64,000 bases of DNA, from positions 1,565,570 to 1,629,569 of the forward strand of contig OY282565.1 in NCBI GenBank assembly GCA_958296445.1, written 5' to 3'. The DNA is from an uncultured Dehalococcoidia bacterium (lineage in GTDB: Bacteria > Chloroflexota > Dehalococcoidia > Lucifugimonadales > UBA3495). This document shows, one piece after another, positions 3,940-39,901 of this stretch. Numbering within the stretch: the first letter of the stretch is position 1; every line of letters begins with the position of its first letter. Made by a program: the position numbers and the translations under genes. Under the pieces are notes generated by a model. The model was not told the DNA's origin, did not search any database, and worked only from the letters and a program-made list of their open reading frames with translations.

Positions 3940-4062
3940 TTAGGGGTCGGAGCAGTCGCGGGTGTAGCCGCAGTTGGGGCAGCGGATTTTGCATTTCCGG
4001 GCCACCATTTCGGCGCCGCAGATTTCGCAGCTAAGGTCGTTGGCGGTGGGTTGTTGGCGCAT
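3940..4062 (-). CDS. Small zinc-ribbon protein (40 aa)
   Basis: 'CEICGAEMVARKCKIRCPNCGYTRDC' gives two CxxC pairs. Lies directly upstream of the WrbA-like gene on the same strand. Confidence 0.35.
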   Translation of the reverse strand: MRQQPTANDLSCEICGAEMVARKCKIRCPNCGYTRDCSDP

Positions 4063-4140
4063 TGGGTTTGCTCCTGTTTTGGATGGAATGAGTATAACAA
4101 CCGCGCGTGGGGTGGGCCAATGGGCAAGTGTCATTAAAAA

Positions 4141-4407
4141 TTGTTGCGGGGTTTTTTGCGGCGGGGTGCTAGGGCGCACGGCTGTGCGCCCCTACGGGTG
4201 CGGTGGGATGCTAGGGCGCATGGTTGCGGGTGGCGTTAAAACGGGGGCGGGATTTTTTGCGGCGGGGTGCTAGGGCGCACGGCTGTGCGCCCCTACGGGT
4301 GCGGTGGGATGCTAGGGCGCATGGTTACGGGTGGCGTTGAAAATGGGGGTGGGGTTTTTGTGGCGGGATACTGGGGCGCACGGCTGTGCGCCCCTACTGG
4401 TGCGGTG
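4141..4407. repeat. About 101-bp tandem repeat (about 2.6 units) carrying the GGGCGCAC-GGCT-GTGCGCCC hairpin; continues at 5825-5935 beyond the IS insertion
   Basis: 'gcggcggggtgctagggcgcacggctgtgcgcccctac' recurs at 4158, 4259 and, degenerate, about 4360. Confidence 0.85.
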
Positions 4408-4453
4408 GGTTCTGTTGCATTTGCTGGGTAGCTGGCAAGGAAAGCGCGGCGCT

Positions 4454-4921
4454 CTACGCCGTGACGTCGCGTTCCAGCTCCCAAATGGCTTTGACCTTCT
4501 GTTCCATCCTCAAGGCTTTCTGAAGATTGTCAATCGCATCTGTCACCCAACTGTCAACACTGGCACGTGCTTCCTCTATGGATTGCGGATGGTTCTCCTT
4601 GCATTGGGGGTCGCTGCACACGCAATAAAAGTAAATGGTGAAATCGCCCGGCGCGGATTGCTTCCTTTCGTAATCCCACCCGGCAATAAACGGATCCCCG
4701 AGGTAGCCCCCCGTCTTAACCCATTCCCTGATGTCAACGCTTTCAGCCATAGCGTCCCATTCCTCGCCAATCACGCCTTGATTCCCTAACAGGATGTAGG
4801 AGTTAATTTTCGCCCAATGCCAGATTTGCTTTTTCTCGAAAGCCACCGGGCAATTGATGAGTAGCCTGTTCCCGTACTCAGGGACATTGATTTCCGCCTC
4901 GTTAGGCCAGAATTTCGTCAT
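4454..4921 (-). CDS. Hypothetical protein (passenger gene inside the IS6-family element)
   Basis: 155-aa ORF inside the IRs. It starts 3 nt after the transposase stop. I recognise no family. Contains 'CVCSDPQCKENH'. Confidence 0.5.
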   Translation of the reverse strand: MTKFWPNEAEINVPEYGNRLLINCPVAFEKKQIWHWAKINSYILLGNQGVIGEEWDAMAESVDIREWVKTGGYLGDPFIAGWDYERKQSAPGDFTIYFYCVCSDPQCKENHPQSIEEARASVDSWVTDAIDNLQKALRMEQKVKAIWELERDVTA

Positions 4922-4923
4922 TG

Positions 4924-5817
4924 CTATATCCCTCCAGCATTATTGACTTTCACCGCGGCCACGTCTTCCCAATCCTTGAATGGCAATTCCGCCCCGGCCG
5001 CTTCCGCCGGCCGCTTTCCCTTCAGGCTTTCGTGGGGGCGGAAATAATTGTAGTGGAGTACCAGCCCGTCAATGTAGGATTGCCCGGTTTCCCGCTTTTT
5101 CAATGCCCGTAGCGTCTTATCCCGGTCTCGCAGTGTGCCTTGCAGTCGCTCGCTCAGATTGTTGTTGATTTCCGCCCGTATGCCCTTGCTCACCACGTGC
5201 TTGACCGGGCGGGTTGGAAATGCCCGCGGCAACGCATCCCGGTATGACCGCAACCCATCCGTCTTGACTTGCTGGGGCGGATTTTCCGCCCGTTCCCTTG
5301 CCAGACTCAAGGCCGTCGCCGCGGCGCGTGTCGTCCTTACCGGGGATAGATACGCCGCCAGCACAAACCGGCTGTCGCTATCCATCACGTTGAATAACCA
5401 GTAATTCTTGCCGCCGACATTGACCACCAGTTCATCGGCAACCCATACGTCTCCGGTGGCAACCTTCATTGGCTTAACGATTTCATCCGCCCTTTCCGTC
5501 AATTCCCTAACCCATCGGTAGACTGTTGCCGGGTTGGTTTTCCTGTCAAAGTATTGCCCGATGTTTTCCGCCGTGCGCCTGTAGGATAGGCCGTCAAAGT
5601 ACATATCTACCGCGGCCCCCTTTTCGTGCGGGGTGGCGTGGGGATGGATGGGCGTCGGCGGATTGACGGGTTTCCCGTTTTCGTCAAGGATGATTACCCG
5701 CTTGCCCTTGCCTGAAGTCCGGCAGGTTTCGCAGGCAAGGCCGCTTTTTCGCTTACAGGATGACCCGCACAAATGCCCCATCGCTGGTATGCTATGCCAA
5801 CTACCCAGCAAATGCAA
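4924..5817 (-). CDS. IS6-family DDE transposase with an N-terminal Cys-rich (zinc-finger-like) segment
   Basis: DDE context: 'VWVADELVV', 'VKTDGLRSYRDAL' and 'NNNLSERLQGTLRDRDK'. N-terminus reads 'CGSSCKRKSGLACETC'. The start lies inside the right IR; an alternative ATG is at 5781. Confidence 0.8.
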   Translation of the reverse strand: MHLLGSWHSIPAMGHLCGSSCKRKSGLACETCRTSGKGKRVIILDENGKPVNPPTPIHPHATPHEKGAAVDMYFDGLSYRRTAENIGQYFDRKTNPATVYRWVRELTERADEIVKPMKVATGDVWVADELVVNVGGKNYWLFNVMDSDSRFVLAAYLSPVRTTRAAATALSLARERAENPPQQVKTDGLRSYRDALPRAFPTRPVKHVVSKGIRAEINNNLSERLQGTLRDRDKTLRALKKRETGQSYIDGLVLHYNYFRPHESLKGKRPAEAAGAELPFKDWEDVAAVKVNNAGGI

Positions 5818-11151: not shown

Positions 11152-11610
11152 TTACCTCCTGGCGGCGTATGCCATTACGTTTTGGGGTACGGGGAGCAGG
11201 TAGGGCAGCAGCAGCGCGGCGGCCCCGGTGAGTTGGACGGAAACGGGATGCCCCTGGCCGTCGCAGGTTACGGTTAGGTTGTCGGCGATGGGGTGGGACG
11301 CGGCCGGGGTTTTGGCGTTGAACAGGCGCAGGATGTCGCGCTCCCGGTCATAGGATACTTGAGGCATCCACTGCGTAGGGGGCCAGGCGTTGCCGAATTC
11401 GTCGGGCAACAGGTGGGGCAACAGCGTTTCCGCGCCGTCCAGCAGTTCGATGGCGGACGGCCCGATATCTATGCGGCGGCCGGTATCGTCCCGCTTGAGG
11501 CAGAAGACTGCTAGGTTGTCGGCGATGGTGCGGGCGCCGTTGGCCCCTCGGCCATCGGAGAGATACAGGGTGTTGGAGAGGTAGGATACTCTCAATTGCG
11601 GTTTTTTCAT
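11152..11610 (-). CDS. Hypothetical protein with two DUF2283-like repeats
   Basis: Two internal repeats end in '...IELLDGAETLLPHLLP' and '...VQLTGAAALLLPYLLP', a DUF2283-like signature. Start was moved to ATG 11610 (MKKPQLRVSY). Confidence 0.45.
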   Translation of the reverse strand: MKKPQLRVSYLSNTLYLSDGRGANGARTIADNLAVFCLKRDDTGRRIDIGPSAIELLDGAETLLPHLLPDEFGNAWPPTQWMPQVSYDRERDILRLFNAKTPAASHPIADNLTVTCDGQGHPVSVQLTGAAALLLPYLLPVPQNVMAYAARR

Positions 11611-11706
11611 ATCGCTCTTATTTTCCGAGGAAATTGCGAAATTTCCGGCTGGCACCCTGAGAGAAGGGAAGGGTCTCACTGGCTAGGGCGGGATTCTTCG
11701 CTTTGC

Positions 11707-13224
11707 TCAGAATGACAGATAATCAGCTAAAATTCCCCGGACTTGCAATTGCTGCCGGAGGTAGTCCATGCTGCGGTTGCCTTTGATGGCGTTGCAGGTG
11801 TGGCACATTAGTTGCAGGTTGCTTATGACGTGCTGGCCGCCTCTGGATAGGGGGGTGATGTGGTCTATGGTTAGGACGTGCAGGGGGAGTTCGTGTTCGC
11901 AGCCGACGCAGCGTTTTTTTTGGGTGGCGTACATGAGTTCTTTTTCGGATCGGGGGTTGGCGGGAAAGTCCGGTTTTAGGTCGGTGCGCTGGCTTGGGGC
12001 GGTTAGAATCAGCGGGCTCCAGTCTTCCCAAGATTTGCTGTCGTCTTCGGCCATAGGTATTTGCAGTTCCCGTTTGGCGCGGTCTTTCAGGACTTCGGCG
12101 GCTTGGGGGGCGATGTCTATGCCGATCCATTGCCTTGCCAGCTTTTCGGCGGCGATGCAGGCGGTGGCGCAGCCGCAGAAGGGGTCTAGAATCAGGTCGC
12201 CCGGGTTGGATGACGCTTTGATGATACGCTCCAGCAGAGCCAGCGGTTTTTGGGTGCGCCATCCGGTATATTCGCCGCCTTTGGTGGAATAGTTGGTGAA
12301 TCCCAAGGGTTCGACGAACAGGTTTTGGGGCGGATTTCCGGCGTCGGCGTCGGCATACCGCTTTAGGCCCGGCCATACTCCTTTTGTGGGGTGATGTATT
12401 AGTCCGGCTTGGTCTAGAGCGTCCAGACGTTGATGTATGCCTTTAATTTCCCGATAGCCGGGGATGAAATTTTGCTCTATGTACTCGGCATACTGGCCGG
12501 TTTTTGGGGCTGACCAGTGCCTTCCTCTTGCGGTTACGTTGTATTTTTTCCAGGGATGACCGGATTCTCCGTTGGAAGTTCCTGCCCCGGTTAAGTCGGC
12601 GCTCCGGTATCGTCCGCGTTCATCTTTGGAGGGATATGCTGTCAGGAGTTCGTCGTCACTCTTTGGGGTAGTGACAAGATTCCAGCAGGGATTGGGGCCT
12701 TTGGAGTACAAAAACAGGTGGTCTAGGATGCGCCCGTAGCGGTTGGGGTCGTTGTGGGAAGTGGCCCGTTTCCAGACGATATTGTTGATGTAGTTTCCTG
12801 AGCCAAAGAGGGCGTCCATTACTCCTTTGAGGTAGTGGCTGGCCGTATCGTCGCAGTGCAGGTAGATGCTTCCGGTGGTTTTCAGTACGCGGTGCATTTC
12901 CAGCAGGCGGATAGCCATAAAGGTGAGGTAGCCGGCCATGCTTTCGCTGTGGGAGAGTTTGGCGCCGTTGATTAGGTGGAACAGGGCGGGGCGGCGGTAT
13001 TCGATTTCGTCGATCCATTCCTCTTTCATATCGTCGAGAGTCCAGACGTCGTCGAACTCCGCGCCTTTGGCTTCGCTGTCCAGCGGGGCGGCGTAGGATT
13101 GGTCGGACTTGAAGGGCGGGTCGAGATAGATCAGGTCAATGCACTCCGAGTTTATGCCTCGGAGGATGTCTAGGTTGTCCCCGGTGAATATGGTGCGGGA
13201 TGGCACGTTGCAGGCGGTTGGCAT
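11707..13224 (-). CDS. Beta-class N4/N6 DNA methyltransferase fused to a C-terminal HNH nuclease domain
   Basis: Motif IV 'DLIYLDPPF' is N-terminal and motif I 'LDPFCGCATACIAAEKLARQWIGIDI' follows it. C-terminal HNH: 'CVGCEH...DHITPLSRGGQHVISNLQLMCHTCNAIKGN'. Confidence 0.8.
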   Translation of the reverse strand: MPTACNVPSRTIFTGDNLDILRGINSECIDLIYLDPPFKSDQSYAAPLDSEAKGAEFDDVWTLDDMKEEWIDEIEYRRPALFHLINGAKLSHSESMAGYLTFMAIRLLEMHRVLKTTGSIYLHCDDTASHYLKGVMDALFGSGNYINNIVWKRATSHNDPNRYGRILDHLFLYSKGPNPCWNLVTTPKSDDELLTAYPSKDERGRYRSADLTGAGTSNGESGHPWKKYNVTARGRHWSAPKTGQYAEYIEQNFIPGYREIKGIHQRLDALDQAGLIHHPTKGVWPGLKRYADADAGNPPQNLFVEPLGFTNYSTKGGEYTGWRTQKPLALLERIIKASSNPGDLILDPFCGCATACIAAEKLARQWIGIDIAPQAAEVLKDRAKRELQIPMAEDDSKSWEDWSPLILTAPSQRTDLKPDFPANPRSEKELMYATQKKRCVGCEHELPLHVLTIDHITPLSRGGQHVISNLQLMCHTCNAIKGNRSMDYLRQQLQVRGILADYLSF

Positions 13225-13289
13225 CGGTTGGCTATTCCTGATGGGTGGTTGGGTTAGTTTGCTCAGGGTGGCGGGCGGGGGTGTTTGGG

Positions 13290-13829
13290 TTAGGCGGCTT
13301 TTTCTTTTTCCCGGTTTAGCGCGATGTCTAGGAATGGTTTTAGGAGCAGTTGGGCGTTTTCTAGGTCTAGGGCTACTAGGCTGCCGTTTTCGTTGTAGTG
13401 GGCGGTCATTCCTTGGGCGGCGGGCTGGCTGGTGTGAATGATTACCGGGTCGTTGGTCTGGATTCTCAGTTTTTGGGTTTCGGGAGTGTAGAATACAAAG
13501 ACGTCTTCCACGGGATCGCCCGAGTTGGGGCCGGAGTTCAGGAAAATGGAGCTTTTTTTGGTGATGGTGCCGGGTTGGGTTTCGTCGGGATGGCGGGCGG
13601 CTTCGATGAGGGGTTCTAGGGCGTTTTCTGCGCCATCCAAGTCTAGGGCCACTAGGCGGTTGCCTTTGTCGTAGTGGGCTACCATATAGTTGGCGGTGGA
13701 TTCGCTTTCGTGGATTCGCACCAGACTGCCGGCTTGAATGGATAGGTATTTGACTTGGGGAGTGTAGAACACTACAACTTCCGGCAACGGTTCCGTTGGA
13801 TCCCTAGGGCTTACTATGTATTTCTCCAC
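13290..13829 (-). CDS. Hypothetical protein with two DUF2283-like repeats (putative antitoxin-type partner)
   Basis: Internal duplication: 'VVFYTPQVKYLSIQ...NRLVALDLDGAENALEPLIE' and 'VFVFYTPETQKLRIQ...GSLVALDLENAQLLLKPFLD'. Overlaps the upstream gene by 16 nt. Confidence 0.5.
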   Translation of the reverse strand: MEKYIVSPRDPTEPLPEVVVFYTPQVKYLSIQAGSLVRIHESESTANYMVAHYDKGNRLVALDLDGAENALEPLIEAARHPDETQPGTITKKSSIFLNSGPNSGDPVEDVFVFYTPETQKLRIQTNDPVIIHTSQPAAQGMTAHYNENGSLVALDLENAQLLLKPFLDIALNREKEKAA

Positions 13830-14140
13830 GGTCTTCCTCCATATCTGTCTGAGAGTTTTCTATTTGCGTAACAAGTGAGCAGTGCGCCAGTGATTTCATC
13901 TCCTAAGAACACCACTGCAATCCACTGATTGAATGGTAACACGCGCCCAACAAGAATTGTCCTAACTTCCCCGTCCGGCATAATTGTCTGCCGTCGGTCA
14001 TACGGGTCATATATGACCTGCATAACCCATTCGGGCCGAATGTCAGGATGCCGTTGATTAGTGGTTTCTCCGTGGATCGGGACTTTGGGCAGTGCCTCGT
14101 ATTCCCGGCGCAGTTGCAGGATTTCGTTCAGTTCTTCCAT
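13814..14140 (-). CDS. DUF4258-like small protein (toxin-type fold, tentative)
   Basis: 108 aa from ATG 14140 (MEELNEIL). Lower GC. Starts 5 nt after the STAND gene stop. The tail '...WIAVVFLGDEITGALLTCYANRK' resembles the DUF4258 C-terminus. Confidence 0.4.
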   Translation of the reverse strand: MEELNEILQLRREYEALPKVPIHGETTNQRHPDIRPEWVMQVIYDPYDRRQTIMPDGEVRTILVGRVLPFNQWIAVVFLGDEITGALLTCYANRKLSDRYGGRPWRNT

Positions 14141-14145
14141 ACCCG

Positions 14146-17100
14146 TTACAGAATCACGGACTCCTCGGTGTCTAGGTCGTTGGGGGGTTGTTGGCCGGTG
14201 AAGTTTTGCCACCAGTTGGCGAAGGGTTGGGGGCCGTATTTGGTGCGGAGGCGGGCTAGGTGGATGCGGGCCTGGGCGATTACGGGGAGGTTGTGGGTTG
14301 CGGCGAGTTGGTAGGTGCGGGCGGCCCAGGAGAGGGCGGCGTCTAGGTCGTCGCGGTCTTCGGCGGCCATTCCTAGCTGGCCGTAGGTGCGGGCGGTGCG
14401 GGGGGTGTCTTGGATTTCCTCGAAAATTTCGCGGGCGCGGTGATACCAATGTTCGGCGTCGTCCAGCTTTTTTTGCTCGTGGAACAGGACGCCGAGTTGG
14501 CGGCATTCGTCGCCTGCGCTGCGCCAGTCGCCCAGCTTTTCGTATTTTTCTAGGGCCAGGGTGTACCAGTGTTCGGCGTCTTCGGGGAACATTTGGCGGC
14601 CCTGCTCCAGCAGGCCGAGGTAGTGAAATTCTAGGGCCATCTGGGTTTCGTTGCCCATACGGTCGCTGAGGGTTAGGGATTGCTTGTACCAGTTTTCGGC
14701 GTCGTCGAACTGATATTGGGCGTGGGCTACGGTGCCTAGGGCGTGGTAGATCAATACTGAGGTTTCTTCGTCGCGGGCTTCCTCCAGGATTTCGCGGGCG
14801 CGGTGATACCAGCTTTCCGCTTCCTGATACTCGAAACGGAATTGGGCGCAGAGGCCGAGGGAGCGGTAGTCTTTGACCATTTCCTCGACGTCTTCCAGCC
14901 TTTGGTGGATGTCCAGGGATTTGGAGAACCAGTCGCGGGCTTCGGTGTAGCGGCGCTGGTACTGGCGCAGCAGTCCCATACTATAGTAGTCGTCGGCGAC
15001 CGGGGCGCGGTCTTCGCCGTTTTCGATGATTGCTAGGGAGCGGGTGAACCATTCCTCGGCTTGGTCGAGCTGCCAGCGTTTCAGGGCGACTTCGCCGGTC
15101 TGGTGGTAGACGGCGGCGGCGCGGGGGTCGGCGTCGGCGTCGGCGTTGGGCTGGGCGGCGAAGTAGTCGAGGAGTTGGCGGTTCATAGCGTCGGCGCGTT
15201 CCAGTTCGCCGGTTTCGATGCACTCTAGGGCTTCGGTTCCGAGGAGGTAGAGCCATAACTCGATGGCGCCGTTGGCCTGGGCGGCGGCGGCGGTGGTTCC
15301 GGCGGACTCCAGCAGTTGGCGGCGCAGGCGGCGCAGTTCGGGGTAGCGTTTTTGCATCCGGTATACTTGGGCCAGGGGCTGGGTCAGGAGTTGGGCGTTG
15401 TCCCACTGGCGGGTTTCTAGGGACAGGGCTAGGGCCTGGGTGAGGTTGCCTTCCTCGGCTAGGATGGCGGTGGTGCCGGAGTCTTGGTTTTCGTAAAGGG
15501 TTTCCATAAAGTAGTCGGCGGTGTCGGCGTAGACGCGGACGAATTCGGCTTCGAGTTGGGCGACGCGGGCCGGGGGGAGTTGGCGGTAGAGGGCGCGGCC
15601 ATAGAACCAGGACATTGCGGGGTGAATCTGGTAGACGCTGGGGGTGATGGGTTCGAGGAAGCCGTCGTCGCGGGCGGAGCGCAGGAGGGTGCGGCAGGCG
15701 CCCCAGCCCATTTGCTCGCCCATCACCGAGCGGTAGACGTTTTCTTGGGTGATGTGGGTAAGGATGTCCATCATCACGCGGCTGCGGAACAGGGAGAGGA
15801 AGGGCAGATGGGTGCGGCTGCGGCGGGGCATCCGGGAAAAGGCGTGGTCAAGCAGGGCGGTCAGGTAGACGGGGCGGCCATCCTCGCCGGGGGCGGGCTG
15901 GTGGTTTTCGATGGCCCGGCGCAGTTCGGCGAGCAGCACCGAGGCCGGAATTTCTTTGAGTAGCGGAATCGCTACTTCCATTGCTAGGGGGTGGCCTTCC
16001 AGCAAGTCCAGCAGCTCTAGAAATTCGGGGCCTAGGCGGGCGGCGTCAATGTTGCTTTCCTCGATAAGGCGGGTGGCGAATTCTAGGCGGTCTTGGCTGG
16101 CGAGGCCGGGCAGGGTATAGCTGCCGTGGGGGGTGGACAGCCAGGGTTCGGGGTTGCGGCGGCTTACCAGCAGGACGCCGCCCTTGCCCCTTTGGCTCTC
16201 TGTTTCGCTCTCCGGGGGGGAACCGGCGGTTGGGGCGGATAGTTCGGCTAGGAATTGGTCTAGTTCGGCCAGCTCGCTGTCGTCGAGCAGCCCGGTTCCG
16301 GGGGTGGGGAAGCCTGCTAGGTTTTCTACGCCATCCCATACCAGCAGGGTTTGGTGTTCCCGCAGGTAGTCCAGCAGCCAGCGGCGGCGGGCGGGGGCAG
16401 GCAGGTCGCCGAATTCTAGGCCGGCGAGGGCGGCGCCGGTTTCGTGAAGTGCTTTGTCCAGCCCGGCGCCTACGTCGAAGGTGGTGTGAAAGACGCCGCT
16501 GGGCCGGTTGCCGCTTTTTTCCAGCCAGGCGGCCAAGCCTAGGGCGGTTTCCGATTTGCCGACGCCTACCGGGCCGGTTAGCAGCACTACGGGGTTGGCG
16601 TCGAGGGCCTGCTCCAGATCCAGGATTTCGCGGCGGCGGCCAATCAGCCCGTAGGGGCCGCCCCGGGGGAGCTGGCGGGGCGGGGCTTCGGGGGTGGCGG
16701 GCAACATTCCGGGGATGACGCGCTCGGGCTCCTCGGCTTTGACGGCGGCGGGGGTGTAGCGGGCGGATTGGTAGACTAGGGGGGTTATCCAGTCCCAAGA
16801 CGGCATTGGCCCGGCGGCGGAGGGGCGGCGGGGATGCTCCATCAGGGCGCGGCGGGCGGCGGATACGGCGGCGGCGGCGCCGGCCCCGCGGGCTATGGCG
16901 GCGTAGAAGGCGTCGGCGAACAGCTTGCGCCCCGAACCGCCTAGGGGGATGGGGAGGAGGGTCACTTCGGGGGGGCCGGACGTAGCCAGCTCTTGGCCGG
17001 CTACGTATGAGTAGTCAATGGCGGAGCAGGTTAGCAGCACGGCGGGGATTCCGGCGGCCGCGACGGCTTGGGACAGGCGGTCAATGGGGACGTGGGGGCC

Positions 17101-17817
17101 GATGCCGCGGAGTGCGGTGCCTTCGTTGCTGATTTCTAGGCCGTCCAAGTGGAGCAGGTGGTAGTGGCCGGGGCGCTCTGCTAGGTGGGCTTCTAGGGCT
17201 TCGACGGAGGCCGGGCGCAGGCAGTCTAGGGTGACTTCGACGTCTAGGGATTCCATTGCGCTCAAGGCTTCGGTGGCGATGCCTTGGGCGGCGGGGGGAC
17301 ATAACATAAGGACGTTGAATTGGGTTTCGCTGAGGGATGGGCCGGAAAACTGCGGGAGTTGGTCGGCGGGGGCGGGATGGCGGGTGATGGATTCGGCGCG
17401 GGCGGCTAGGTAGCCGACTTGGGGGTCGTTGATGAGTTCCCAAGGGAGGGAAAGGAACTCGGGGCGGGCGGAAATGATGGACAGGCGGAAGGGGCGGGTT
17501 TCAGGGGGGTTGAGGCGGGCCAGAATATCGGCGGCTTGGGTGGTGGCCCGGAAAACGGTTTCCAGCATCAGCCGGCCGAGGTTGCGCAGGCCGGCTTCGG
17601 CGGCCTCGGCCCGGGGGCGCGATTCGCCGAAGGGCTCCGACGGGTAGCTGGTGAACAGCCAGGCTAGTTCTAGGAGTTCCTCGTCGGTTAGGGGAAAGGG
17701 GAAGGAGACGGGCGGCGCGGATGCGCGGCTGCCGGAGTCGTCTACTATAGAAAGCTGAAGCCGGCCGCTTTCGGGCAAGTCCAGGATTTCCAGCGTATCG
17801 GCCAAGGGTTCCTCCAT
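14146..17817 (-). CDS. STAND-class NTPase: N-terminal CHAT/caspase-like domain, P-loop NB-ARC/NACHT-like module, C-terminal TPR array
   Basis: 1223 aa. Walker A 'LLTGPVGVGKSE' and Walker B-like 'LLVWDGVENL'. The N-terminus has possible His/Cys dyad contexts 'HYHLLHLDG' and 'AVLLTCSA'. At least 7 TPR-like units of the pattern 'Y..LG......Y..AE.WY..S/AL'. Confidence 0.7.
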   Translation of the reverse strand: MEEPLADTLEILDLPESGRLQLSIVDDSGSRASAPPVSFPFPLTDEELLELAWLFTSYPSEPFGESRPRAEAAEAGLRNLGRLMLETVFRATTQAADILARLNPPETRPFRLSIISARPEFLSLPWELINDPQVGYLAARAESITRHPAPADQLPQFSGPSLSETQFNVLMLCPPAAQGIATEALSAMESLDVEVTLDCLRPASVEALEAHLAERPGHYHLLHLDGLEISNEGTALRGIGPHVPIDRLSQAVAAAGIPAVLLTCSAIDYSYVAGQELATSGPPEVTLLPIPLGGSGRKLFADAFYAAIARGAGAAAAVSAARRALMEHPRRPSAAGPMPSWDWITPLVYQSARYTPAAVKAEEPERVIPGMLPATPEAPPRQLPRGGPYGLIGRRREILDLEQALDANPVVLLTGPVGVGKSETALGLAAWLEKSGNRPSGVFHTTFDVGAGLDKALHETGAALAGLEFGDLPAPARRRWLLDYLREHQTLLVWDGVENLAGFPTPGTGLLDDSELAELDQFLAELSAPTAGSPPESETESQRGKGGVLLVSRRNPEPWLSTPHGSYTLPGLASQDRLEFATRLIEESNIDAARLGPEFLELLDLLEGHPLAMEVAIPLLKEIPASVLLAELRRAIENHQPAPGEDGRPVYLTALLDHAFSRMPRRSRTHLPFLSLFRSRVMMDILTHITQENVYRSVMGEQMGWGACRTLLRSARDDGFLEPITPSVYQIHPAMSWFYGRALYRQLPPARVAQLEAEFVRVYADTADYFMETLYENQDSGTTAILAEEGNLTQALALSLETRQWDNAQLLTQPLAQVYRMQKRYPELRRLRRQLLESAGTTAAAAQANGAIELWLYLLGTEALECIETGELERADAMNRQLLDYFAAQPNADADADPRAAAVYHQTGEVALKRWQLDQAEEWFTRSLAIIENGEDRAPVADDYYSMGLLRQYQRRYTEARDWFSKSLDIHQRLEDVEEMVKDYRSLGLCAQFRFEYQEAESWYHRAREILEEARDEETSVLIYHALGTVAHAQYQFDDAENWYKQSLTLSDRMGNETQMALEFHYLGLLEQGRQMFPEDAEHWYTLALEKYEKLGDWRSAGDECRQLGVLFHEQKKLDDAEHWYHRAREIFEEIQDTPRTARTYGQLGMAAEDRDDLDAALSWAARTYQLAATHNLPVIAQARIHLARLRTKYGPQPFANWWQNFTGQQPPNDLDTEESVIL

Positions 17818-18983: not shown

Positions 18984-19550
18984 CTATGCTTGCTGAAAAA
19001 TCTGGGATAGGGGCAGATCCAGCCCCGGGAGGGTTGTTGACTGGATAGTTTCGCCGGGGCCGTGGATTCGTAGCCGTTGCCATTCTCCGTTTTGCAGTTG
19101 CAAGACCTCTACGGTTTGGGCTTGGGGGGAGACTAGCCAGCATTCTAGGACGCCGATTTGGGCGTAGTCGGACAGCTTGCCCTTGATTTCGGCCCGGGTG
19201 TTGCCGGGGGAAAGGATTTCTACTACTAGGTCGGGGGCGCCGTGAATCCGGTCGTCTTGGACGATGTTGGCTCTTTGGTTGCTTATGAACAGCAGGTCGG
19301 GCTGGCGGGTGCGCAGGGGGTCGCGTTGTATGATGATGTCTAGGGGGGCGTACAGTACTTCGCCCAACCCGCGCTCGCTGACGAATTGGTGGACAGGCAG
19401 GTAGATTTTGGCGGAGGTTCGCTGATGGTAGATGTTGGGCGCGGCGGACATAATCACTTCGCCGTCCACGATGTCGAAGCGCAACATTGTTTCAGGCTCG
19501 TTGAGGTATTCTTGATAGGTGAGTTTGGTTCCGGTTTGCAGGGTGGTCAT
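18984..19550 (-). CDS. Uma2-family (DUF820) putative endonuclease, solitary copy
   Basis: 'RQPDLLFI...APDLVVEILSPGNTRAEIKGKLSDYAQIGVLECWLV' is the typical Uma2 PD-(D/E)xK-like core. Confidence 0.8.
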   Translation of the reverse strand: MTTLQTGTKLTYQEYLNEPETMLRFDIVDGEVIMSAAPNIYHQRTSAKIYLPVHQFVSERGLGEVLYAPLDIIIQRDPLRTRQPDLLFISNQRANIVQDDRIHGAPDLVVEILSPGNTRAEIKGKLSDYAQIGVLECWLVSPQAQTVEVLQLQNGEWQRLRIHGPGETIQSTTLPGLDLPLSQIFQQA

Positions 19551-30942: not shown

Positions 30943-31530
30943 CTATTTTAGGAGTGGGCCGAAAATGTTGGCTATGGGTAGGGCGAAGCCGGGCAGGATT
31001 TGGGATTGGAGGGTGTCGGCTATGCCGTAGGTGGCGATGGTGGTTGCGGTGTCGGGGGTTAGGCGCAGGACTTCGATTGTTCGGGCGGGGAAATCGGCCA
31101 GCCAGCACTCGGGGACGCCTATGCTGCGGTAGTCGGCCAGGCGTTGCGTTATGTCGCGGCGGGTGTTGCTGGGGGACAGGACTTCTACCACCAGCAGCGG
31201 GGGGCGTTCTAGGAAGGGGCGGCCTACTAGGTCGGACGGGCGGGTTATGCCGGTTAATTCGGCGTTCACTACCAGAATATCGGGTTGGCGGACTCGTAAG
31301 GGTTCCCGTTGAATCAGGACGTCGTAGGGGGCCGTTAGCACTATGCCGAGATCCCTTTCCCTCACAAATGGCGAGAGATGCCTCACGATTTCTAGGCCAA
31401 GCCATTGGTGTTCACCCATTGGGCTGGGGGGCATTAGCAGGACTCCGTCCACAACCTCGCAGCGTTGGTTGGTTTCGGGTAGGGCTTGCCATTGGTCGAA
31501 GGTTAATTTTTTGGTGCTGATGGTGGTCAT
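30943..31530 (-). CDS. Uma2-family putative endonuclease, array copy 2
   Basis: 588 nt, same frame architecture. ATG at 31530. A 17-nt spacer with AGGAAA lies upstream. Confidence 0.8.
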   Translation of the reverse strand: MTTISTKKLTFDQWQALPETNQRCEVVDGVLLMPPSPMGEHQWLGLEIVRHLSPFVRERDLGIVLTAPYDVLIQREPLRVRQPDILVVNAELTGITRPSDLVGRPFLERPPLLVVEVLSPSNTRRDITQRLADYRSIGVPECWLADFPARTIEVLRLTPDTATTIATYGIADTLQSQILPGFALPIANIFGPLLK

Positions 31531-31547
31531 TGGGTTGTTTCCTGCGG

Positions 31548-32135
31548 CTATTTTAGGAGTGGGCCGAAAATGTTGGCGATGGGTAGGGCGAAGCCGGGGA
31601 GGATTTGGGATTGGAGGGTGTCGGCTATGCCGTAGGTGGCGATGGTGGTTGCGGATTGGGGGGTTAGGCGCAGGACTTCGATTGTGCGGGCGGGGAAGTT
31701 TACTAGCCAGCACTCGGGGACGCCTATGCTGCGGTAGTCGGCCAGCTTTTCCTGAATCTGGCGGCGGGTGTTGCTGGGGGACAGTATTTCCACTACCAGG
31801 TCGGGGGGCGATTCGATGCGCTGTATGTCGGCTAGGTCGGATTCACGCCTGACGCCAGCGCGGGCGGCGCTTAGGTAGAAAATGTCCGGTTGCCTCACCC
31901 GCAGGGGTTCTTTGCTAATCAGCACATCGCACGGGGCCATTATCGCTAGGCCCAAGCCATTTTCTTCTACGAAAAGCGATACGGGCCTGATTATCCGAAG
32001 TCCAAGTATCTGGTGTTCGGGTGTTGGGCTGGGGGGCATTAGCAGGACTCCGTCCACAACCTCGCAGCGTTGCTTGGTTTCGGGTAGGGCTTGCCATTGG
32101 TCGAAGGTTAATTTTTTGGTGCTGATGGTGGTCAT
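31548..32135 (-). CDS. Uma2-family putative endonuclease, array copy 3
   Basis: 588 nt. Carries the central variant 'FYLSAARAGVRRESDLADIQRIESPPDLVVEILSPSN'. Confidence 0.8.
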   Translation of the reverse strand: MTTISTKKLTFDQWQALPETKQRCEVVDGVLLMPPSPTPEHQILGLRIIRPVSLFVEENGLGLAIMAPCDVLISKEPLRVRQPDIFYLSAARAGVRRESDLADIQRIESPPDLVVEILSPSNTRRQIQEKLADYRSIGVPECWLVNFPARTIEVLRLTPQSATTIATYGIADTLQSQILPGFALPIANIFGPLLK

Positions 32136-32757: not shown

Positions 32758-33345
32758 CTATTTTAGGAGCGGGCCGAAAATGTTGGCTATGGGTAGGGCG
32801 AAACCGGGGAGGATTTGGGATTGGAGGGTGTCGGCTATGCCGTAGGTGGCGATGGTGGTTGCGGCTTCGGGGGTTAGGCGCAGGATTTCGATTGTCCGGG
32901 TGGGGAAGTTTACCAGCCAGCATTCTAATACGCCGATGCTGCGGTAGTCGGCCAGCTTTTCCTGAATTTGGCGGCGGGTGTTGCTGGGGGAAAGTATTTC
33001 CACCACCAAGTCGGGGGGCGATTCGATGCGCTGTATGTCGGCTAGGTCGGATTCACGCCTGACGCCAGCGCGGGCGGCGCTTAGGTAGAAAATATCCGGT
33101 TGCCTTACCCGCAGGGGTTCTTTGCTAATCAGGACATCGCACGGGGCCATTATCGCTAGGCCCAAGCCATTTTCTTCTACGAAAAGCGATACGGGCCTGA
33201 TTATCCGAAGTCCAAGTATCTGGTGTTCGGGTGTTGGGCTGGGGGGCATTAGCAGGACTCCGTCCACAACCTCGCAGCGTTGTTTGGTTTCGGGTAGGGC
33301 TTGCCATTGGTCGAAGGTCAATTTTTTGGTGCTTGTGGTGGTCAT
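32758..33345 (-). CDS. Uma2-family putative endonuclease, array copy 5
   Basis: 588 nt. Its central part is nearly identical to copy 3. Confidence 0.8.
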   Translation of the reverse strand: MTTTSTKKLTFDQWQALPETKQRCEVVDGVLLMPPSPTPEHQILGLRIIRPVSLFVEENGLGLAIMAPCDVLISKEPLRVRQPDIFYLSAARAGVRRESDLADIQRIESPPDLVVEILSPSNTRRQIQEKLADYRSIGVLECWLVNFPTRTIEILRLTPEAATTIATYGIADTLQSQILPGFALPIANIFGPLLK

Positions 33346-33362
33346 TGGGTTGTTTCCTGCGG

Positions 33363-33950
33363 CTATTTTAGGAGCGGGCCGAAAATGTTGGCTATGGGTA
33401 GGGCGAAGCCGGGGAGGATTTGGGAGCTTAGGGTGTCGGCTATGCCGTAGGTGGCGATGGTGGTTGCGGATTCGGGGGTTAGGCGCAGGACTTCGATTGT
33501 CCGGGCGGGGAAGTTTACTAGCCAGCATTCGGGGACGCCGATGCTGCGGTAGTCGGCCAGGCGTTGCGTTATGTCGCGGCGGGTGTTGCTGGGGGAAAGG
33601 ACTTCGACTACTAGCAGCGGGGGGCGTTCTAGGAAGGGGCGGCCTACTAGGTCGGACGGGCGGGTTATGCCGGTCAATTCGGCGTTCACTACTAGGACAT
33701 CCGGTTGGCGAACTCGTAAGGGTTCCCGTTGAATCAGCACGTCGTAGGGGGCCGTTAGCACTATGCCGAGATCCCTTTCCCGCACAAATGGCGAGAGATG
33801 CCTCACGATTTCTAGGCCAAGCCAGGGGTGTTCACCCATTGGGCTGGGGGGCATTAGCAGGACTCCGTCCACAACCTCGCAGCGTTGTTTGGTTTCGGGT
33901 AGGGCTTGCCATTGGTCGAAGGTTAATTTTTTGGTGCTGATGGTAGTCAT
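33363..33950 (-). CDS. Uma2-family putative endonuclease, array copy 6
   Basis: 588 nt. Its central part is close to copy 2. Confidence 0.8.
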   Translation of the reverse strand: MTTISTKKLTFDQWQALPETKQRCEVVDGVLLMPPSPMGEHPWLGLEIVRHLSPFVRERDLGIVLTAPYDVLIQREPLRVRQPDVLVVNAELTGITRPSDLVGRPFLERPPLLVVEVLSPSNTRRDITQRLADYRSIGVPECWLVNFPARTIEVLRLTPESATTIATYGIADTLSSQILPGFALPIANIFGPLLK

Positions 33951-33967: not shown

Positions 33968-34555
33968 CTATTTTAGGAGCGGGCCGAAAATGTTGGCGAT
34001 GGGTAGGGCGAAGCCGGGGAGGATTTGGGATTGGAGGGTTTGGCCCATTGTGTAGGTGGCGATGGTGGTTGCGGATTCGGGGGTTAGGTGCAGGACTTCG
34101 ATTGTGCGGGCGGGGAAGTTTACCAGCCAGCATTCTAATACGCCTATGCTGCGGTAGTCGGCTAGTTTTTCCGTTATGTCGCGGCGGGTGTTGCTGGGGG
34201 ACAGTATTTCCACCACTAGGTCGAGGGGCGATTGGATAAGCTGTATGCCAGCTAGGTCGGACTCGCGTCTTACGCCAGCGCGGGCGGCGCTTAGGTAGAA
34301 AATATCCGGTTGCCTTACCCGCAGGGGTTCCTTGCTAATCAGTACATCGCACGGGGCCATTATCGCTACGCCTAGCTCTCTTTCCCGCACAAACGGGGAG
34401 AGCTGCATCGCAATGTCAAGGCGAAGTATCTGATACTCAAGGGTTGGGTTGGGCGGCATTAGCAGGATTCCGTCCACAACCTCGCAGCGCTGCTTGGTTT
34501 CCGGCAACGCTTGCCATTCGTCGAATGTCAGCCTTTTGGCGCTGGCAGGGTTCAT
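33968..34555 (-). CDS. Uma2-family putative endonuclease, array copy 7 (first in transcription; most divergent N-terminus)
   Basis: 588 nt. Starts MNPASAKRLTFDEWQALPETKQRCEVVDGILLMPP. Its ATG (34553-34555) overlaps the dapF stop as TGATG. Confidence 0.8.
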   Translation of the reverse strand: MNPASAKRLTFDEWQALPETKQRCEVVDGILLMPPNPTLEYQILRLDIAMQLSPFVRERELGVAIMAPCDVLISKEPLRVRQPDIFYLSAARAGVRRESDLAGIQLIQSPLDLVVEILSPSNTRRDITEKLADYRSIGVLECWLVNFPARTIEVLHLTPESATTIATYTMGQTLQSQILPGFALPIANIFGPLLK

Positions 34556-35406
34556 CAGACAGGCCAGTCTCCGGTGAATACTTCGGTGGCGGGGCCTTCC
34601 ATTATTACTTCGCCTGCGCCGTCCCAGGTTATGGTTAGGGGGCCGCCGGGTAGGGTTATGTTTACTGTGTCGGGGCAGTGGTTGGATAGGCGGGCGGCTA
34701 CGGCTATGGCGCAGGCGCCGGTGCCGCAGGCTAGGGTTTCGCCGCTGCCGCGTTCCCAGACCCGGGCGGTTAGCTTGCCGGGGGCGTCTAGGTTGACAAT
34801 CTCAAAGTTGACGCGGCGGGGAAAGATGGGGTGATGCTCTACTTTGGGGCCGATGGTGTGCAGGGGGAAGTCGGCTACGGGCTGGCTGATGAAGGTTACG
34901 GCGTGGGGGTTGCCCATCGAAACGAAGCTTAGGGGGAGGTCGTAGCCGTCTATCGTAAAGGGGTGTTCCAGCACCGGGGGCGGGGGTTCGCCGTCTAGGG
35001 CTACCGGAATTTGGGCGGGTTCAAGGATGGGGGCGCCCATTGCCACCCGGGCGCCGGTGATGCGGGAGCCGCCGTTGGCGTAGGTGGGGGTGACGGTGCG
35101 GATGCCGGCCAGGGTTTCGACGGTGAGGCTGCCGCTAGGGGGGGCGGCGATGTCGCGCTCGATGGCGTATTTGGCGAAACAGCGGATGCCGTTGCCGCAC
35201 ATTTCGCCTTGGGAGCCGTCGGCGTTGAACATTATCATCTTTAGGTCGGCTATGCCGGAGTCGGCAATGAGAATCAGGCCGTCGCTGCCGACGCCGAAAT
35301 GCCGGTCGCTCATGCGGCGGGACAGTTCGGGCCAGTTTTGTTCTTGGGAGCGGGCGTCTATATATATGTAGTCGTTGCCCGCGCCTTGCATTTTGGTGAA
35401 TTGCAT
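34555..35406 (-). CDS. dapF: Diaminopimelate epimerase
   Basis: 'MQFTKMQGAGNDYIYID...FGVGSDGLILI...FNADGSQGEMCGNGIRC...ERGSGETLACGTGACA'. Both catalytic Cys contexts are present. Start was moved to ATG 35406. Confidence 0.9.
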   Translation of the reverse strand: MQFTKMQGAGNDYIYIDARSQEQNWPELSRRMSDRHFGVGSDGLILIADSGIADLKMIMFNADGSQGEMCGNGIRCFAKYAIERDIAAPPSGSLTVETLAGIRTVTPTYANGGSRITGARVAMGAPILEPAQIPVALDGEPPPPVLEHPFTIDGYDLPLSFVSMGNPHAVTFISQPVADFPLHTIGPKVEHHPIFPRRVNFEIVNLDAPGKLTARVWERGSGETLACGTGACAIAVAARLSNHCPDTVNITLPGGPLTITWDGAGEVIMEGPATEVFTGDWPV

Positions 35407-35961
35407 TGGGGTGGGCTCCTTTTGTGGCGTTGGCCTTTTTGGCCCCCTGAGCGGAGCGGATGGTCTCACTGCTCAGGGGTGGGATTCTTCGCTTTGCTCA
35501 GAATGACAGGGTTTTGCTCAGTGGCGGGGTTTGCATTTTGGTGAATTGCATTGGGGTGGACTCCTTTTGGGGCGTTGGCCTTTTTGCTGCCCTGTCCCCT
35601 GTGTCGCCCTGAGCGGAGCGGAGGGTCTCACTGGCCAAGGTGAGATTCTTCGCTTTGCTCAGAATGACAGGGTTTGCTCGGTGGCGGGGTTTGCTTGGGA
35701 TGATGGGGTTTGCTCGTTGCCCGCGCCTTGCATTTCAGAATGGCGGGGTTTGCTAGGTGGCGGGGTTTGCTTGGGATGATGGGGTTTGCTCGTTGCCCGC
35801 GCCTTGCATTTCAGAATGGCGGGGTTTGCTCGGTGGCGGGGTTTGCTTGGGATGACGGGGTTTGCTCGTTGCCCGCGCCTTGCATTTTGGTGAATTGCAT
35901 TGGGGTGGGCTCCTTTTGTTGGCCTGTGCGGGTTGGTGGTGGTGGGTTGGGGGTTGTTGGG
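35407..35961. repeat. Composite repeat region made of duplicated dapF 5'-end/leader segments interleaved with family-1 repeat cores
   Basis: 'ttgcattttggtgaattgcattggggtgg(g/a)ctcctttt' occurs at 35384-35425 (genuine), 35531-35575 and 35879-35920. The fragment 'gttgcccgcgccttgcatttcagaatggcgggg' occurs at 35715 and 35795. Confidence 0.85.
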
Positions 35962-36942: not shown

Positions 36943-37149
36943 AGATGGCCTTTTGTCATTTTGCTCAGAGTGACAAAGGGGGCGCTCAGGGTGACAAAGG
37001 GGTTGCTCAGGGTAGTAAAGGGTTGCTCAGGCACTTTCTGTCATTCTGAGCAAAGAGAAGAATCTTGGCTTGAGCGGTGAGGCCCTTCGCTTTGCTCAGG
37101 GTGACAAAGGGTTGCTTAGGGTGACAAAGGGTTGATTTGGCGGCGGCGG

Positions 37150-38790
37150 CTAGTCGGGTTGGCCGAGTTTTGGTTGGCGGCCTTGGGGGGGGCGGGCGCG
37201 TTGGGCGGGCTGGTAGTCGGCGGGGCGGGGGGGCAGGTCGAAGTTTTGGCCGGACAGCATTTCGCCGATGGTGCGTAGCTGGATTTTGGGGAAATCGCGG
37301 GCCCATAGGTCGGAGTGGTAGAAACCGGCGCCGACGGCTTCTTGGCGCATATCCCGGGTGGGCGGTTCTAGGGATATGAACAGTCCCAGGGCGGCCTGCT
37401 CCCGTTCTACTACGCCTTTGAGGTCGCGGATTTGGGGGGATGATACCCGCCCGCCCTTGACTTGGATGACGGCTTTTTGGGGGGTGCGGCGCGGGCCGTC
37501 TAGGAAGTAGAGCATACCGTCAACGCCGCGGTCGGGGCCGCGCTTTTGTTCGGATTGCGGCTGCGCCTGTAGCAGGGATACGGCCCAGAACTGGAACTGG
37601 TAGGGGTCTTGTTCCCAGAGGGCGCGGGCGCTGCCTTCGTCCTGCGGTTCGCCTACTACGGCGTAATCGCGGCCGGCTTCTAGGGCGAAGGCGGTTTTCA
37701 GGCGGTTTTTCATCAGGGCTACGGCTAGGTGGGTTATGTCTATTCCCAGCCACTGGCGGCCGAGCTTGTGGGCGGCGGCTACCGCCGTGCCGCAGCCGCA
37801 GAACGGGTCAAGCACTACGTCGCCCTCGTTGGACGAGGCGCGGATGATGCGCTCTAGCAGGGCTTCGGGCTTTTGGGTGGGGTAGCCTAGTCGCTCTTTG
37901 GCTTGGGATGCGACTGCCCCTATGTCTGTCCATATATCTTGTAAAGGGATTCCCGGCATTTCGTCAAGGTATCTTTTATATGCCGGGACTGCTCCTGGCC
38001 GCGTCTGAACGATGCGGCCGGCGTCAATCAATTCCTGCATTCTTTCTTTGGAATAGCGCCAATAACGGGTGACTCCCATAACTTCATAGCTGGGGTTTCC
38101 TTTGGCTGCGCCGCCGGGCCCGGTTAGGTTATCCAATCTATAGCGGCGTCCGGTGTCGGGTTCCTCGTAGCGATAAGACTGGTCTACGTACTCTTGGTCG
38201 TATTGAGTATAGGTTGGGTTCCAAGTCCAGTTGGAAGTCTTGGTATAAAACAAAATCGTATCGTGAACCCGCCCGTGCTGCCGCCTGCCCTGCCGGGTGT
38301 CGCTGTGGGCGCTGGTGCGCTTCCAAGTTATATCGGTTCGGAAATTCTGTTGCCCAAACACGGTGTCCATAAGCAGTTTCAGGTAATGGCCGGCGGTGGG
38401 GTCGCAGTGGAGGTAGATGCTGCCGGTGGGTTTGAGGGCGCGGCGCAGTTCGACTAGGCGGGGGGCCATCATTGTGAGGTAGGCCATCATAGCGTTGCGG
38501 CCGATGAACTGGCGGAAGGCGGTAATCATATCCTTGACTGCGGGTGGGACGTTTGGGTTGGCGATTATGTCTTGCTCGAAGGTGTGTTCGGTTTCTTGGG
38601 TCCATTCCCAGGTGTCGGTGAAGGCGCGGATTTGGGCTGGGGAATCCTCGCCGGTTTTTTCGCGGAAGAGGACGTTGTAGGATGCGTTGGAGTTGAAGGG
38701 TGGGTCGAGGTAGACGAGGTCTACGGAGGCGTCGGGGACGCGCTCGCGGAGGACGGGTAGGTTGTCGCCGTAGAAGAGGGCGTTGGGCAT
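37150..38790 (-). CDS. Beta-class N4/N6 DNA methyltransferase fused to a C-terminal Mrr-like (PD-(D/E)xK) restriction-endonuclease domain
   Basis: '[16 protein letters not shown]' and '[26 protein letters not shown]'. C-terminus '[12 protein letters not shown]...[23 protein letters not shown]...GLFISL'. Start was moved to ATG 38790. N-terminal half is paralogous to 11707..13224. Confidence 0.8.
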
Positions 38791-39452
38791 CAGGGGGCCT
38801 CGCGGGCTAGGCGCTCGGCGTCGCGGATGTAGTCGGCGGTGTCGCGGATGTCGTGGATGAGCAGGTTGACCGGCTCGACGTTGCGCTCGACTACGGCGGT
38901 CTGGTAGATGTCGTGGGATATTGTGGCGTAGCGGCCTTTTATGGGCCGCAAGTCTTGGTTTTGCTCCCGGTTCTGCCAGACAAGGCGCGTCAGGCAGTCG
39001 TAAGTCCATTTTTCGTCGTCCGGGGTGGTTTCCACGCCGGTTCGGGCCAATATCAGGGCGTTGGTGGCCTGTAAAGCGGCGGCCCAAGCCTTTTCCGCCG
39101 ACTTGTGCAGGAGTTCGCGGTTCCAGAGTTGGTTGGCCTCATCCAAGTATTGGACGGCCTCGGAGTAGGTGGCGTGGGCCTTGGCAAACAGGTCGGTCAC
39201 TCGCTTGGTTTCCAGCATATTTGCGTTCTCCGGGTTTTGGCTGCCCAGGCTGCGTATTCCGGCTGAAGTTTGCCCGACGGTGGGCATCCGCCCGGTGCGG
39301 GCGAGGATCAGGGCGTCGGTGGCCCGCTTGGTGGCGCCCCAGGCGGCTTCGGCGGCGATGCGGTGCTTGCCGAGCTCCAGGATTTCGATGGCGTCGGCGT
39401 AGAGCGCCCAGGCGTCGGCGAAGATGGCGGCGGCTTGGTCGGGTTCTGGCAC
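38790..39452 (-). CDS. PaREP1/HEPN-like helical protein (one partial plus one full repeat)
   Basis: Two 'AxEAAWGA / [22 protein letters not shown]' signatures. GTG start at 39452, preceded by AGGAGA. An internal ATG at 39218 is an alternative start. The stop overlaps the methyltransferase ATG as TGATG. Confidence 0.5.
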
Positions 39453-39484
39453 GGGGTCTCCTAGGGTTTGGCTGGGACGGCGGT

Positions 39485-39901
39485 TCAGGGGGCCTCGCGG
39501 GCTAGGCGCTCGGCGTCGCGGATGTAGTCGGCGGTGTCGCGGATGTCGTGGATGGTGAAGTCCAGGGGGTCTACGCTGCCGTTGCATAGCACTAGGTCGA
39601 AAAGATAGACGGACAGGTGGGCGTACCTGTCTTTCAGATCCTCGAGCCCCGGAACTTCTTTGGCCAGGCGCGACAGCAAGCCATAGGTATCGGCGTCGCT
39701 GCCGGGTTTGGGTTCGATGCCGGTGCGGGCGAGAATCAGGGCGTTGGTGGCCTGGTTGGCGGCGGCCCACGCTTTTTCCGCTGATCTAAGCAGTTCGCGC
39801 TTGTCCCAATGCTTTGTTGCGTCGTCCAGCCGCGCTAGGGAATCCGCGCTATTGACGCGGGCTTCGTCCAGTAGAGCGACAACCTGTTTGGTTTTTAACA
39901 T
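39485..39901 (-). CDS. PaREP1/HEPN-like helical protein
   Basis: 138 aa. '[22 protein letters not shown]'. The last ~70 nt are identical to the 3' end of 38790..39452. Confidence 0.5.
   Translation of the reverse strand: MLKTKQVVALLDEARVNSADSLARLDDATKHWDKRELLRSAEKAWAAANQATNALILARTGIEPKPGSDADTYGLLSRLAKEVPGLEDLKDRYAHLSVYLFDLVLCNGSVDPLDFTIHDIRDTADYIRDAERLAREAP

Follow-up and report, generated by a model that had tools for sequence, protein, structure and literature searches.

Can a DNA methyltransferase (MTase) that carries its own nuclease domain constitute a complete restriction-modification (R-M) system? The question is raised by two genes, P0001 and P0002, in a 64,000-nt stretch of the chromosome of an uncultured Dehalococcoidia bacterium (contig OY282565.1, genome positions 1565570-1629569; hereafter the window). 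An earlier note, made from the DNA letters, had described their products as paralogous beta-class MTases ending in different, swapped nuclease modules, HNH in P0001 and Mrr-like in P0002, and had read them as modular, self-contained R-M-like enzymes. We find that this architecture is real and widespread, and we hold it slightly likelier true than false that P0001 and P0002 are self-contained R-M enzymes of a Type IIC-like, one-protein kind, with a core resembling the Mod subunits of Type III systems. The coordinates of all features are collected in Table 1.

Both open reading frames (ORFs) are present where the earlier note placed them, on the minus strand, and the motifs that it quoted (DPPF ahead of FCGCxT in both, DHITP... 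in P0001 and ...IQVKGG in P0002) were all found in the translations. BLASTP aligned the two proteins with 38% identity over 409 columns (E 1e-75), bearing out the proposed paralogy of the N-terminal ~400 aa, and the similarity ends at the onset of the nuclease domains. The shared part matched the Pfam family N6_N4_Mtase (PF01555) with E 7.6e-39 and 134.4 bits in P0001 and with E 2.5e-44 and 152.3 bits in P0002, the curated cut-off being 26.7 bits. In both proteins motif IV lies N-terminal of motif I, which is the beta-class order: DPPF is found at residues 35-38 and DPFCGCAT at ~347-354 in P0001, DPPF at 29-32 and DPFCGCGT at 328-335 in P0002, with a variable stretch between them in each case. 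By analogy with other enzymes whose motif IV is DPPF, both are probably N6-adenine MTases. By sequence and by fold, both cores are closest to Type III Mod subunits. The central region of P0001, the least conserved part of the protein among 120 homologs, occupies the position of the target-recognition domain (TRD) in beta-class and Mod MTases, and folds with a predicted local distance difference test score (pLDDT) >90 in the AlphaFold2 (AF2) model. The start of P0002 was placed at the ATG at 38790 because the N-termini of its homologs align from there; the open frame continues upstream to a TTG at 39087.

Beyond the MTase cores the two proteins do carry different nuclease folds, with Pfam matches above the cut-offs in both cases. 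The C-terminus of P0001 matched HNH_5 (E 2e-13, 50.5 bits, cut-off 27.5) as well as HNH (E 1.6e-10, 41.4 bits, cut-off 21.4). It displays the motif residues C439xxC442, D454-H455, N469 and C474xxC477-N478, followed by K. No variation was seen among 61 homologs at C439, C442, D454, H455, C474, C477 or N478, and N469 has a conservation of 90% or more; the HNH residues are retained in all seven MTase-HNH paralogs of the genome, at overall identities of merely 34-69%. This domain can be aligned to the HNH domains of Cas9d/IscB, endonuclease VII and McrA, and is, as judged from its residues, canonical. In P0002, residues 394-487 matched Mrr_cat (E 7.8e-8, 32.9 bits, cut-off 21). The AF2 model of this protein is usable (pLDDT 72, predicted template modelling score 0.70) and shows, at residues 385-486, the alpha-beta-beta-beta-alpha-beta order of PD-(D/E)xK nucleases, in which D424 begins one strand and Q443-V-K445 ends the next. 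Foldseek matched the C-terminal domain to the nuclease domains of MspJI (4f0p) and AspBHI (4oc8), both of which are active D...QxK enzymes, and a sequence search of the PDB with the Mrr-like domain alone as query returned zero matches. Across 150 representatives (50% clustering), D420, D424 and K445 show little or no variation. Catalytic-type residues, whose absence on alignment would have counted against the original reading, are present in both nuclease domains.

The two genes are not a special pair: the genome, a single contig of 4.0 Mb with 61% GC, holds 12 such fusions, and the families to which they belong comprise thousands of database sequences. Inspection of the long matches among the 38 PF01555 matches of the genome, an unusually high methylase load, identified seven MTase-HNH and five MTase-Mrr-like fusions, the domains of the paralogs being confirmed for representatives. 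Eight of the 12 lie inside 170 kb, ~4% of the chromosome (genome 1577276-1746771), and four of the Mrr-type genes form two tandem pairs. Within these pairs, the N-terminal ~150 aa and the C-terminal ~250 aa are 76-100% identical and the central ~150 aa 6-40% identical; at the DNA level the ends are 93-100% and the centre 26-54% identical. In the pair at 1728993-1732271, an upstream promoter-like region with a TATAAT box was duplicated together with the gene. This mosaicism of ends and centre is that of Type III mod alleles, and we therefore take the centre to be an exchangeable TRD.

The phylogeny of the MTase cores was then set against nuclease type. In a tree of the MTase cores of the genome, a single change per nuclease type suffices (moderate support, 78-79%), which is compatible with one origin for each. 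The idea of swapped nuclease modules therefore holds as far as the different folds go, but this tree speaks against frequent swapping: nucleases were exchanged long ago, and what is traded now is the TRD. On the same tree, a 306-aa MTase without a nuclease domain (genome 1210327-1211130) clusters with the Mrr-type cores, and may be a nuclease-loss derivative. Next to the tandem pair at 1743533-1746771, a stand-alone EVE-domain gene (genome 1746768-1747247; Pfam E 1.7e-54) overlaps the start of the pair by 4 nt. EVE domains are readers of modified bases, and this gene and the two methylase-nuclease fusions may form one operon.

Database searches retrieved at least 8000 relatives for each of P0001 and P0002. 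The best 120 clusters of each keep the architecture, at identities of 60-87% for the HNH type and 74-87% for the Mrr type, and the Mrr-like domain used as query yielded 2642 representatives at 50% clustering. Short matches to this domain were considered as stand-alone nucleases and rejected, as they begin inside the MTase C-lobe and are thus gene fragments. One Mrr-type relative, P0293 (537 aa), has an extra C-terminal segment with an HExxH motif (HEVGH) after the nuclease domain; judged by eye, it is a possible ImmA/IrrE-like metallopeptidase domain. The PADLOC models matched by the fusions are MTase_II, MTase_III and orphan-MTase only, so that such tools score these proteins as solitary methylases.

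Both halves of the fusions are under purifying selection. Pairwise Nei-Gojobori comparison of 76 Mrr-type and 31 HNH-type genes gave nonsynonymous-to-synonymous rate ratios (dN/dS) of 0.19 for the Mrr-like and 0.16 for the HNH domain, close to those of the MTase lobes (0.13-0.16 and 0.09) and below those of linker and tail (0.28-0.39); with dS near saturation, these values are meaningful as a ranking only. The ranking indicates that the nuclease domains are maintained and not decaying. The genes themselves come and go. P0002 sits between miaA and tpiA, which are both present in 40 of the 40 genus genomes searched, and we classed the interval between them by gene coordinates and by matches to the Mrr-like domain. 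Thirteen of the 40, the source genome included, have what appears to be an intact fusion there (open frame no shorter than 555 aa), 5 have short or stop-interrupted remnants and 8 another insert of 0.4-2.7 kb; the remaining 14 are empty at this site (25-91 bp). Of 18 genus genomes, 4 carry a full-length ortholog of P0001 (identity 64% or higher), which in the closest relatives is syntenic with the luciferase-like gene adjoining P0001. This gain, decay and loss across the genus is the behaviour of an accessory R-M-type gene, and not that of a clade-wide regulatory methylase. The nearest public relatives of the genome are metagenome-assembled genomes of Dehalococcoidia (Chloroflexota), some of whose bin names we take to denote sponge metagenome bins, a habitat presumed from few names.

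Do the fusions work with a partner gene? The earlier note had seen no separate restriction partner nearby, and we likewise detected no helicase, Res or separate restriction endonuclease gene within 5 kb of either fusion. ORFs were called and neighbours clustered in 80 Mrr-type and 36 HNH-type loci, and none of these 116 related loci revealed a conserved partner. In the Mrr-type loci the commonest neighbour families (the syntenic tpiA and miaA, or PaREP1-like genes) reach at most 8 of 80. Uma2 is the sole recurring neighbour in the HNH-type loci (15/36), and is expanded genome-wide. Copies that are 75-78% identical occupy unrelated chromosomal contexts. We conclude that the fusion genes are stand-alone.

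The family extends to mobile DNA. Full-length Mrr-type homologs, nuclease included, were found in 28 phage records, with 47-49% identity over residues 3-531. In the temperate actinophage Snorlax of Streptomyces, gp48 (UKH48550.1; positions 3971-5617 of the phage stretch examined) matches P0002 with 49% identity over 531 residues, including much of the TRD, adjoins a serine integrase gene and is annotated as a DNA methylase only. Plasmid homologs of the Mrr type, among them those of Mesorhizobium japonicum MAFF 303099 (pMLa; WP_044552088.1) and Microbacterium amylolyticum DSM 24221 (WP_165137960.1), are solitary and annotated as DNA methyltransferase only, and some stand beside toxin-antitoxin genes. 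No full-length HNH-type fusion was found in the phage and plasmid collections searched.

How would such a protein work as a one-protein R-M enzyme? The Mod-like beta-class core would read a short DNA sequence through its central, exchangeable TRD and, using S-adenosylmethionine, methylate the recognised site, probably at the N6 position of adenine, thereby marking the chromosome of its host. The nuclease at the C-terminus (HNH beta-beta-alpha-metal finger in P0001, MspJI/Mrr-like D...QxK fold in P0002) would be tethered to the same recognition module and would cut unmethylated DNA, such as that of an infecting phage, at or near the recognised site, probably after two molecules meet, as in Type IIS and Type IIC enzymes. 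Replacement of the TRD cassette between the conserved frames would generate new specificities.

Among known systems, the closest functional precedent for P0002 is BtgZI, a Type IIC/IIS enzyme (GCGATG 10/14) whose single chain starts with a DNA MTase, of the alpha class, and ends with a PD-(D/E)xK-type nuclease of motif D...QxK, Q replacing E (PMC4081073). P0002 has the same domain order and the same Q variant, a likeness taken from the published description, whereas the MTases of P0001 and P0002 belong to the beta class, resemble Mod and have the TRD in the centre. No characterised counterpart of the MTase-HNH fusion was found in the literature. Type IIG/IIL enzymes (MmeI, BpuSI, Eco57I and the TaqII/TspGWI family) likewise combine methylation, cleavage and recognition in one chain, are encoded by stand-alone genes and alter their specificity through one recognition module, but in them a PD-ExK nuclease comes first, a gamma-class (NPPY/F/W) MTase second and the TRD last, whereas P0001 and P0002 consist of a beta-class MTase with internal TRD followed by a C-terminal nuclease. 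The fusions are thus single polypeptides, as Type IIC/IIG enzymes are, without the canonical domain layout, and only the atypical BtgZI shares their order. Type III Mod subunits (EcoP15I, 4zcf; Helicobacter pylori, 6k0w; Mbo45V, 7dsu) provide the best sequence and fold matches to the cores, and in them, too, conserved N and C lobes frame a central TRD that can be swapped, as phase-variable mod alleles show. Membership in Type III fails because a Res helicase-nuclease gene is absent, both beside P0001 and P0002 and in the 116 loci, the nuclease being fused instead. MspJI and AspBHI resemble the C-terminal domain of P0002 in fold and in the D...QxK signature, but in these Type IV enzymes an SRA-like domain reads modified cytosine, whereas the partner domain in P0002 is a methyltransferase.

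Several observations weigh against a role of P0001 and P0002 as active restriction enzymes, and bear on the alternatives. The Mrr-like active site is less canonical than the earlier note implied: of 151 sequences, 77 have Q and 74 have S at position 443, the metal-ligand site before the lysine, and the Pfam family PF22722, NA-iREase1 (named "inactive REase", for restriction endonuclease), matches P0002 almost as well as Mrr_cat does, with scores for the Mrr-like domain of the fusions that range from similar to those of Mrr_cat to higher. This leaves cleavage more doubtful for the Mrr type than for the HNH type, and, on alignment, the Q/S split is the main doubt on Mrr-type catalysis. The S variants are not explained by E464 as a relocated catalytic acid in the manner of Cfr10I, an idea that was dropped because the phage and plasmid homologs do not retain this residue. 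Apart from its TRD and HNH parts, the AF2 model of P0001 is weak (pLDDT 64), and dS is ~1 in the comparisons that rank selection on the nuclease domains. We found no family member with biochemical or methylome data in the literature; 12 active single-chain restriction enzymes would be a heavy load for one 4-Mb genome; and full-length homologs in temperate Streptomyces phages show that its members are not confined to the defence of a host. The description as self-contained R-M-like enzymes nevertheless remains the best-supported reading, offered here as an interpretation of sequence and predicted structure.

Alternatively, the proteins may be solitary (orphan) MTases that solely write an epigenetic mark or shield DNA from other restriction systems; their nuclease fold would then be non-cutting and aid DNA binding, dimerisation or the reading of methylation. 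The even Q/S split, the NA-iREase1 score, the restriction of PADLOC matches to MTase models, the MTase-only relative that groups with the Mrr-type cores, and the phage homologs, which are annotated as DNA methylase and could serve anti-restriction, all suit this view. We nevertheless judge it unlikely, since the catalytic and zinc residues of the HNH domain are kept over deep divergence, D420, D424 and K445 are near-invariant where a pure binding domain would not need them, and the patchy distribution in the genus, with frequent decay, is unlike that of orphan regulators of the CcrM/Dam type, which are core genes of a clade. It is more doubtful still that the genes are selfish or phage-derived, their nuclease chiefly serving the gene or its mobile element and not the cell, through homing-like spread, post-segregational killing, degradation of host DNA or superinfection exclusion by a prophage. 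Such a role would be in keeping with the 28 phage records and the Snorlax copy beside its serine integrase, with the plasmid copies beside toxin-antitoxin genes, with the similar copies in unrelated contexts and with the repeated occupation of one intergenic site, tpiA-miaA, across the genus. However, no integrase, transposase or target-site repeat accompanies P0001 or P0002, the HNH type was not found full-length in the phages or plasmids searched, and TRD diversification suits many targets and not one homing site; in addition, selfish behaviour overlaps with R-M behaviour and is compatible with it.

The least probable of the explanations considered, and to our mind a very improbable one, is that the fusions are components of multi-gene conflict systems, P0001 acting with CHAT-AAA-TPR, DUF4258-like and double-DUF2283 proteins and P0002 with PaREP1-like proteins. 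P0001 is flanked by a luciferase-like monooxygenase gene on one side, and lies in a block (11152-17817, minus strand) that reads CHAT-AAA-TPR (1223 aa), DUF4258-like, double-DUF2283, MTase-HNH, double-DUF2283; the closest relative shares this synteny, and a second shares part of it. P0002 is preceded by PaREP1-like genes, the last of which has a stop codon overlapping the P0002 ATG (TGATG), and another PaREP1-like gene (genome 1732517-1732894) adjoins a second Mrr-type pair. Yet PaREP1-like neighbours occur in only 8 of the 80 Mrr-type loci, CHAT and DUF2283 genes are absent from all other HNH-type loci, and these neighbours matched no PADLOC family at E <= 0.001, except for a generic TPR-repeat model that matched the CHAT-AAA-TPR protein.

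Some further features of the window surround the two genes. The tandem PaREP1-like genes have a common, near-identical ~95-nt 3' end and repeated upstream blocks. Uma2/DUF820 genes ("putative restriction endonuclease"), the only nuclease-fold neighbours of the fusions, are expanded across the window, with at least four in 64 kb (18984-19550, 30943-31713, 32758-33528, 33968-34555 (-)); they recur beside many related loci, and the family is strongly expanded in the lineage. The intergenic DNA on both sides of miaA (35400-35943 and 36976-37131) is built from repeats, including three tandem units of 76-77 nt (35659-35887) and several families of 26-60 nt, and a 74-nt inverted repeat (35597-35670 / 37038-37111) brackets the gene. 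These repeats resemble miniature inverted-repeat transposable elements and lie beside the insertion-prone tpiA-miaA interval.

Table 1. Positions of the fusion genes, their domains and related features (window coordinates unless marked as genome)
Feature	Coordinates	Strand	Basis or remark
P0001 gene, beta-class MTase + HNH, 505 aa	11707..13224	-	ORF, translation, Pfam
P0001 MTase domain, residues 29-380	12085..13140	-	Pfam; best fold matches Type III Mod 6k0w, 4zcf
P0001 central variable region, presumed TRD, ~residues 156-315	12280..12759	-	Conservation, pLDDT
P0001 HNH nuclease domain, residues 439-493	11746..11910	-	Pfam, alignment to known HNH domains
P0002 gene, beta-class MTase + Mrr-like nuclease-fold domain, 546 aa	37150..38790	-	ORF, translation, Pfam
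P0002 MTase domain, residues 23-358	37717..38724	-	Pfam; Foldseek best 4zcf (EcoP15I Mod), 6k0w, 7dsu (Mbo45V Mod)
P0002 central TRD region, ~residues 159-295	37906..38316	-	6-40% identity among paralogs, ends 76-100%
P0002 Mrr-like PD-(D/E)xK domain, residues 376-512	37255..37665	-	D420, D424, Q443-V-K445; Pfam, AF2, Foldseek
Two or three tandem PaREP1-like (HEPN-superfamily) genes	38790..39901	-	Pfam PaREP1; directly upstream of P0002; context only
MTase-Mrr-like fusions	genome 1602719-1604359 (P0002), 1728993-1730663, 1730754-1732271, 1743533-1745026, 1745110-1746771		
MTase-HNH fusions, first four	genome 1577276-1578793 (P0001), 1213416-1215071, 1667585-1669342, 1675845-1677599		
MTase-HNH fusions, other three	genome 2389373-2391079, 2561447-2563303, 2660916-2662538		

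What would the self-contained, one-protein reading mean beyond this genome? In its general form, which we put at just short of an even chance, Mod-like MTases with their own C-terminal nuclease would form a large, helicase-independent class of one-protein R-M enzymes that is reprogrammed by TRD cassettes, abundant in Dehalococcoidia (apparently including sponge-associated lineages), carried also by actinophages and rhizobial plasmids, and invisible to defence-finding tools. If this is true, thousands of genes annotated as "DNA methyltransferase" would be complete restriction systems, and R-M would be undercounted in censuses of defence systems, above all in Chloroflexota like the source bacterium. 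The conserved frame with its exchangeable TRD would then offer a ready-made basis for new Type IIS-like specificities, and, given the phage homologs, it may be asked which party turns the nuclease on which. If, on the other hand, the proteins do not cut, they would represent a widespread case of nuclease folds that methylases have put to some other use.

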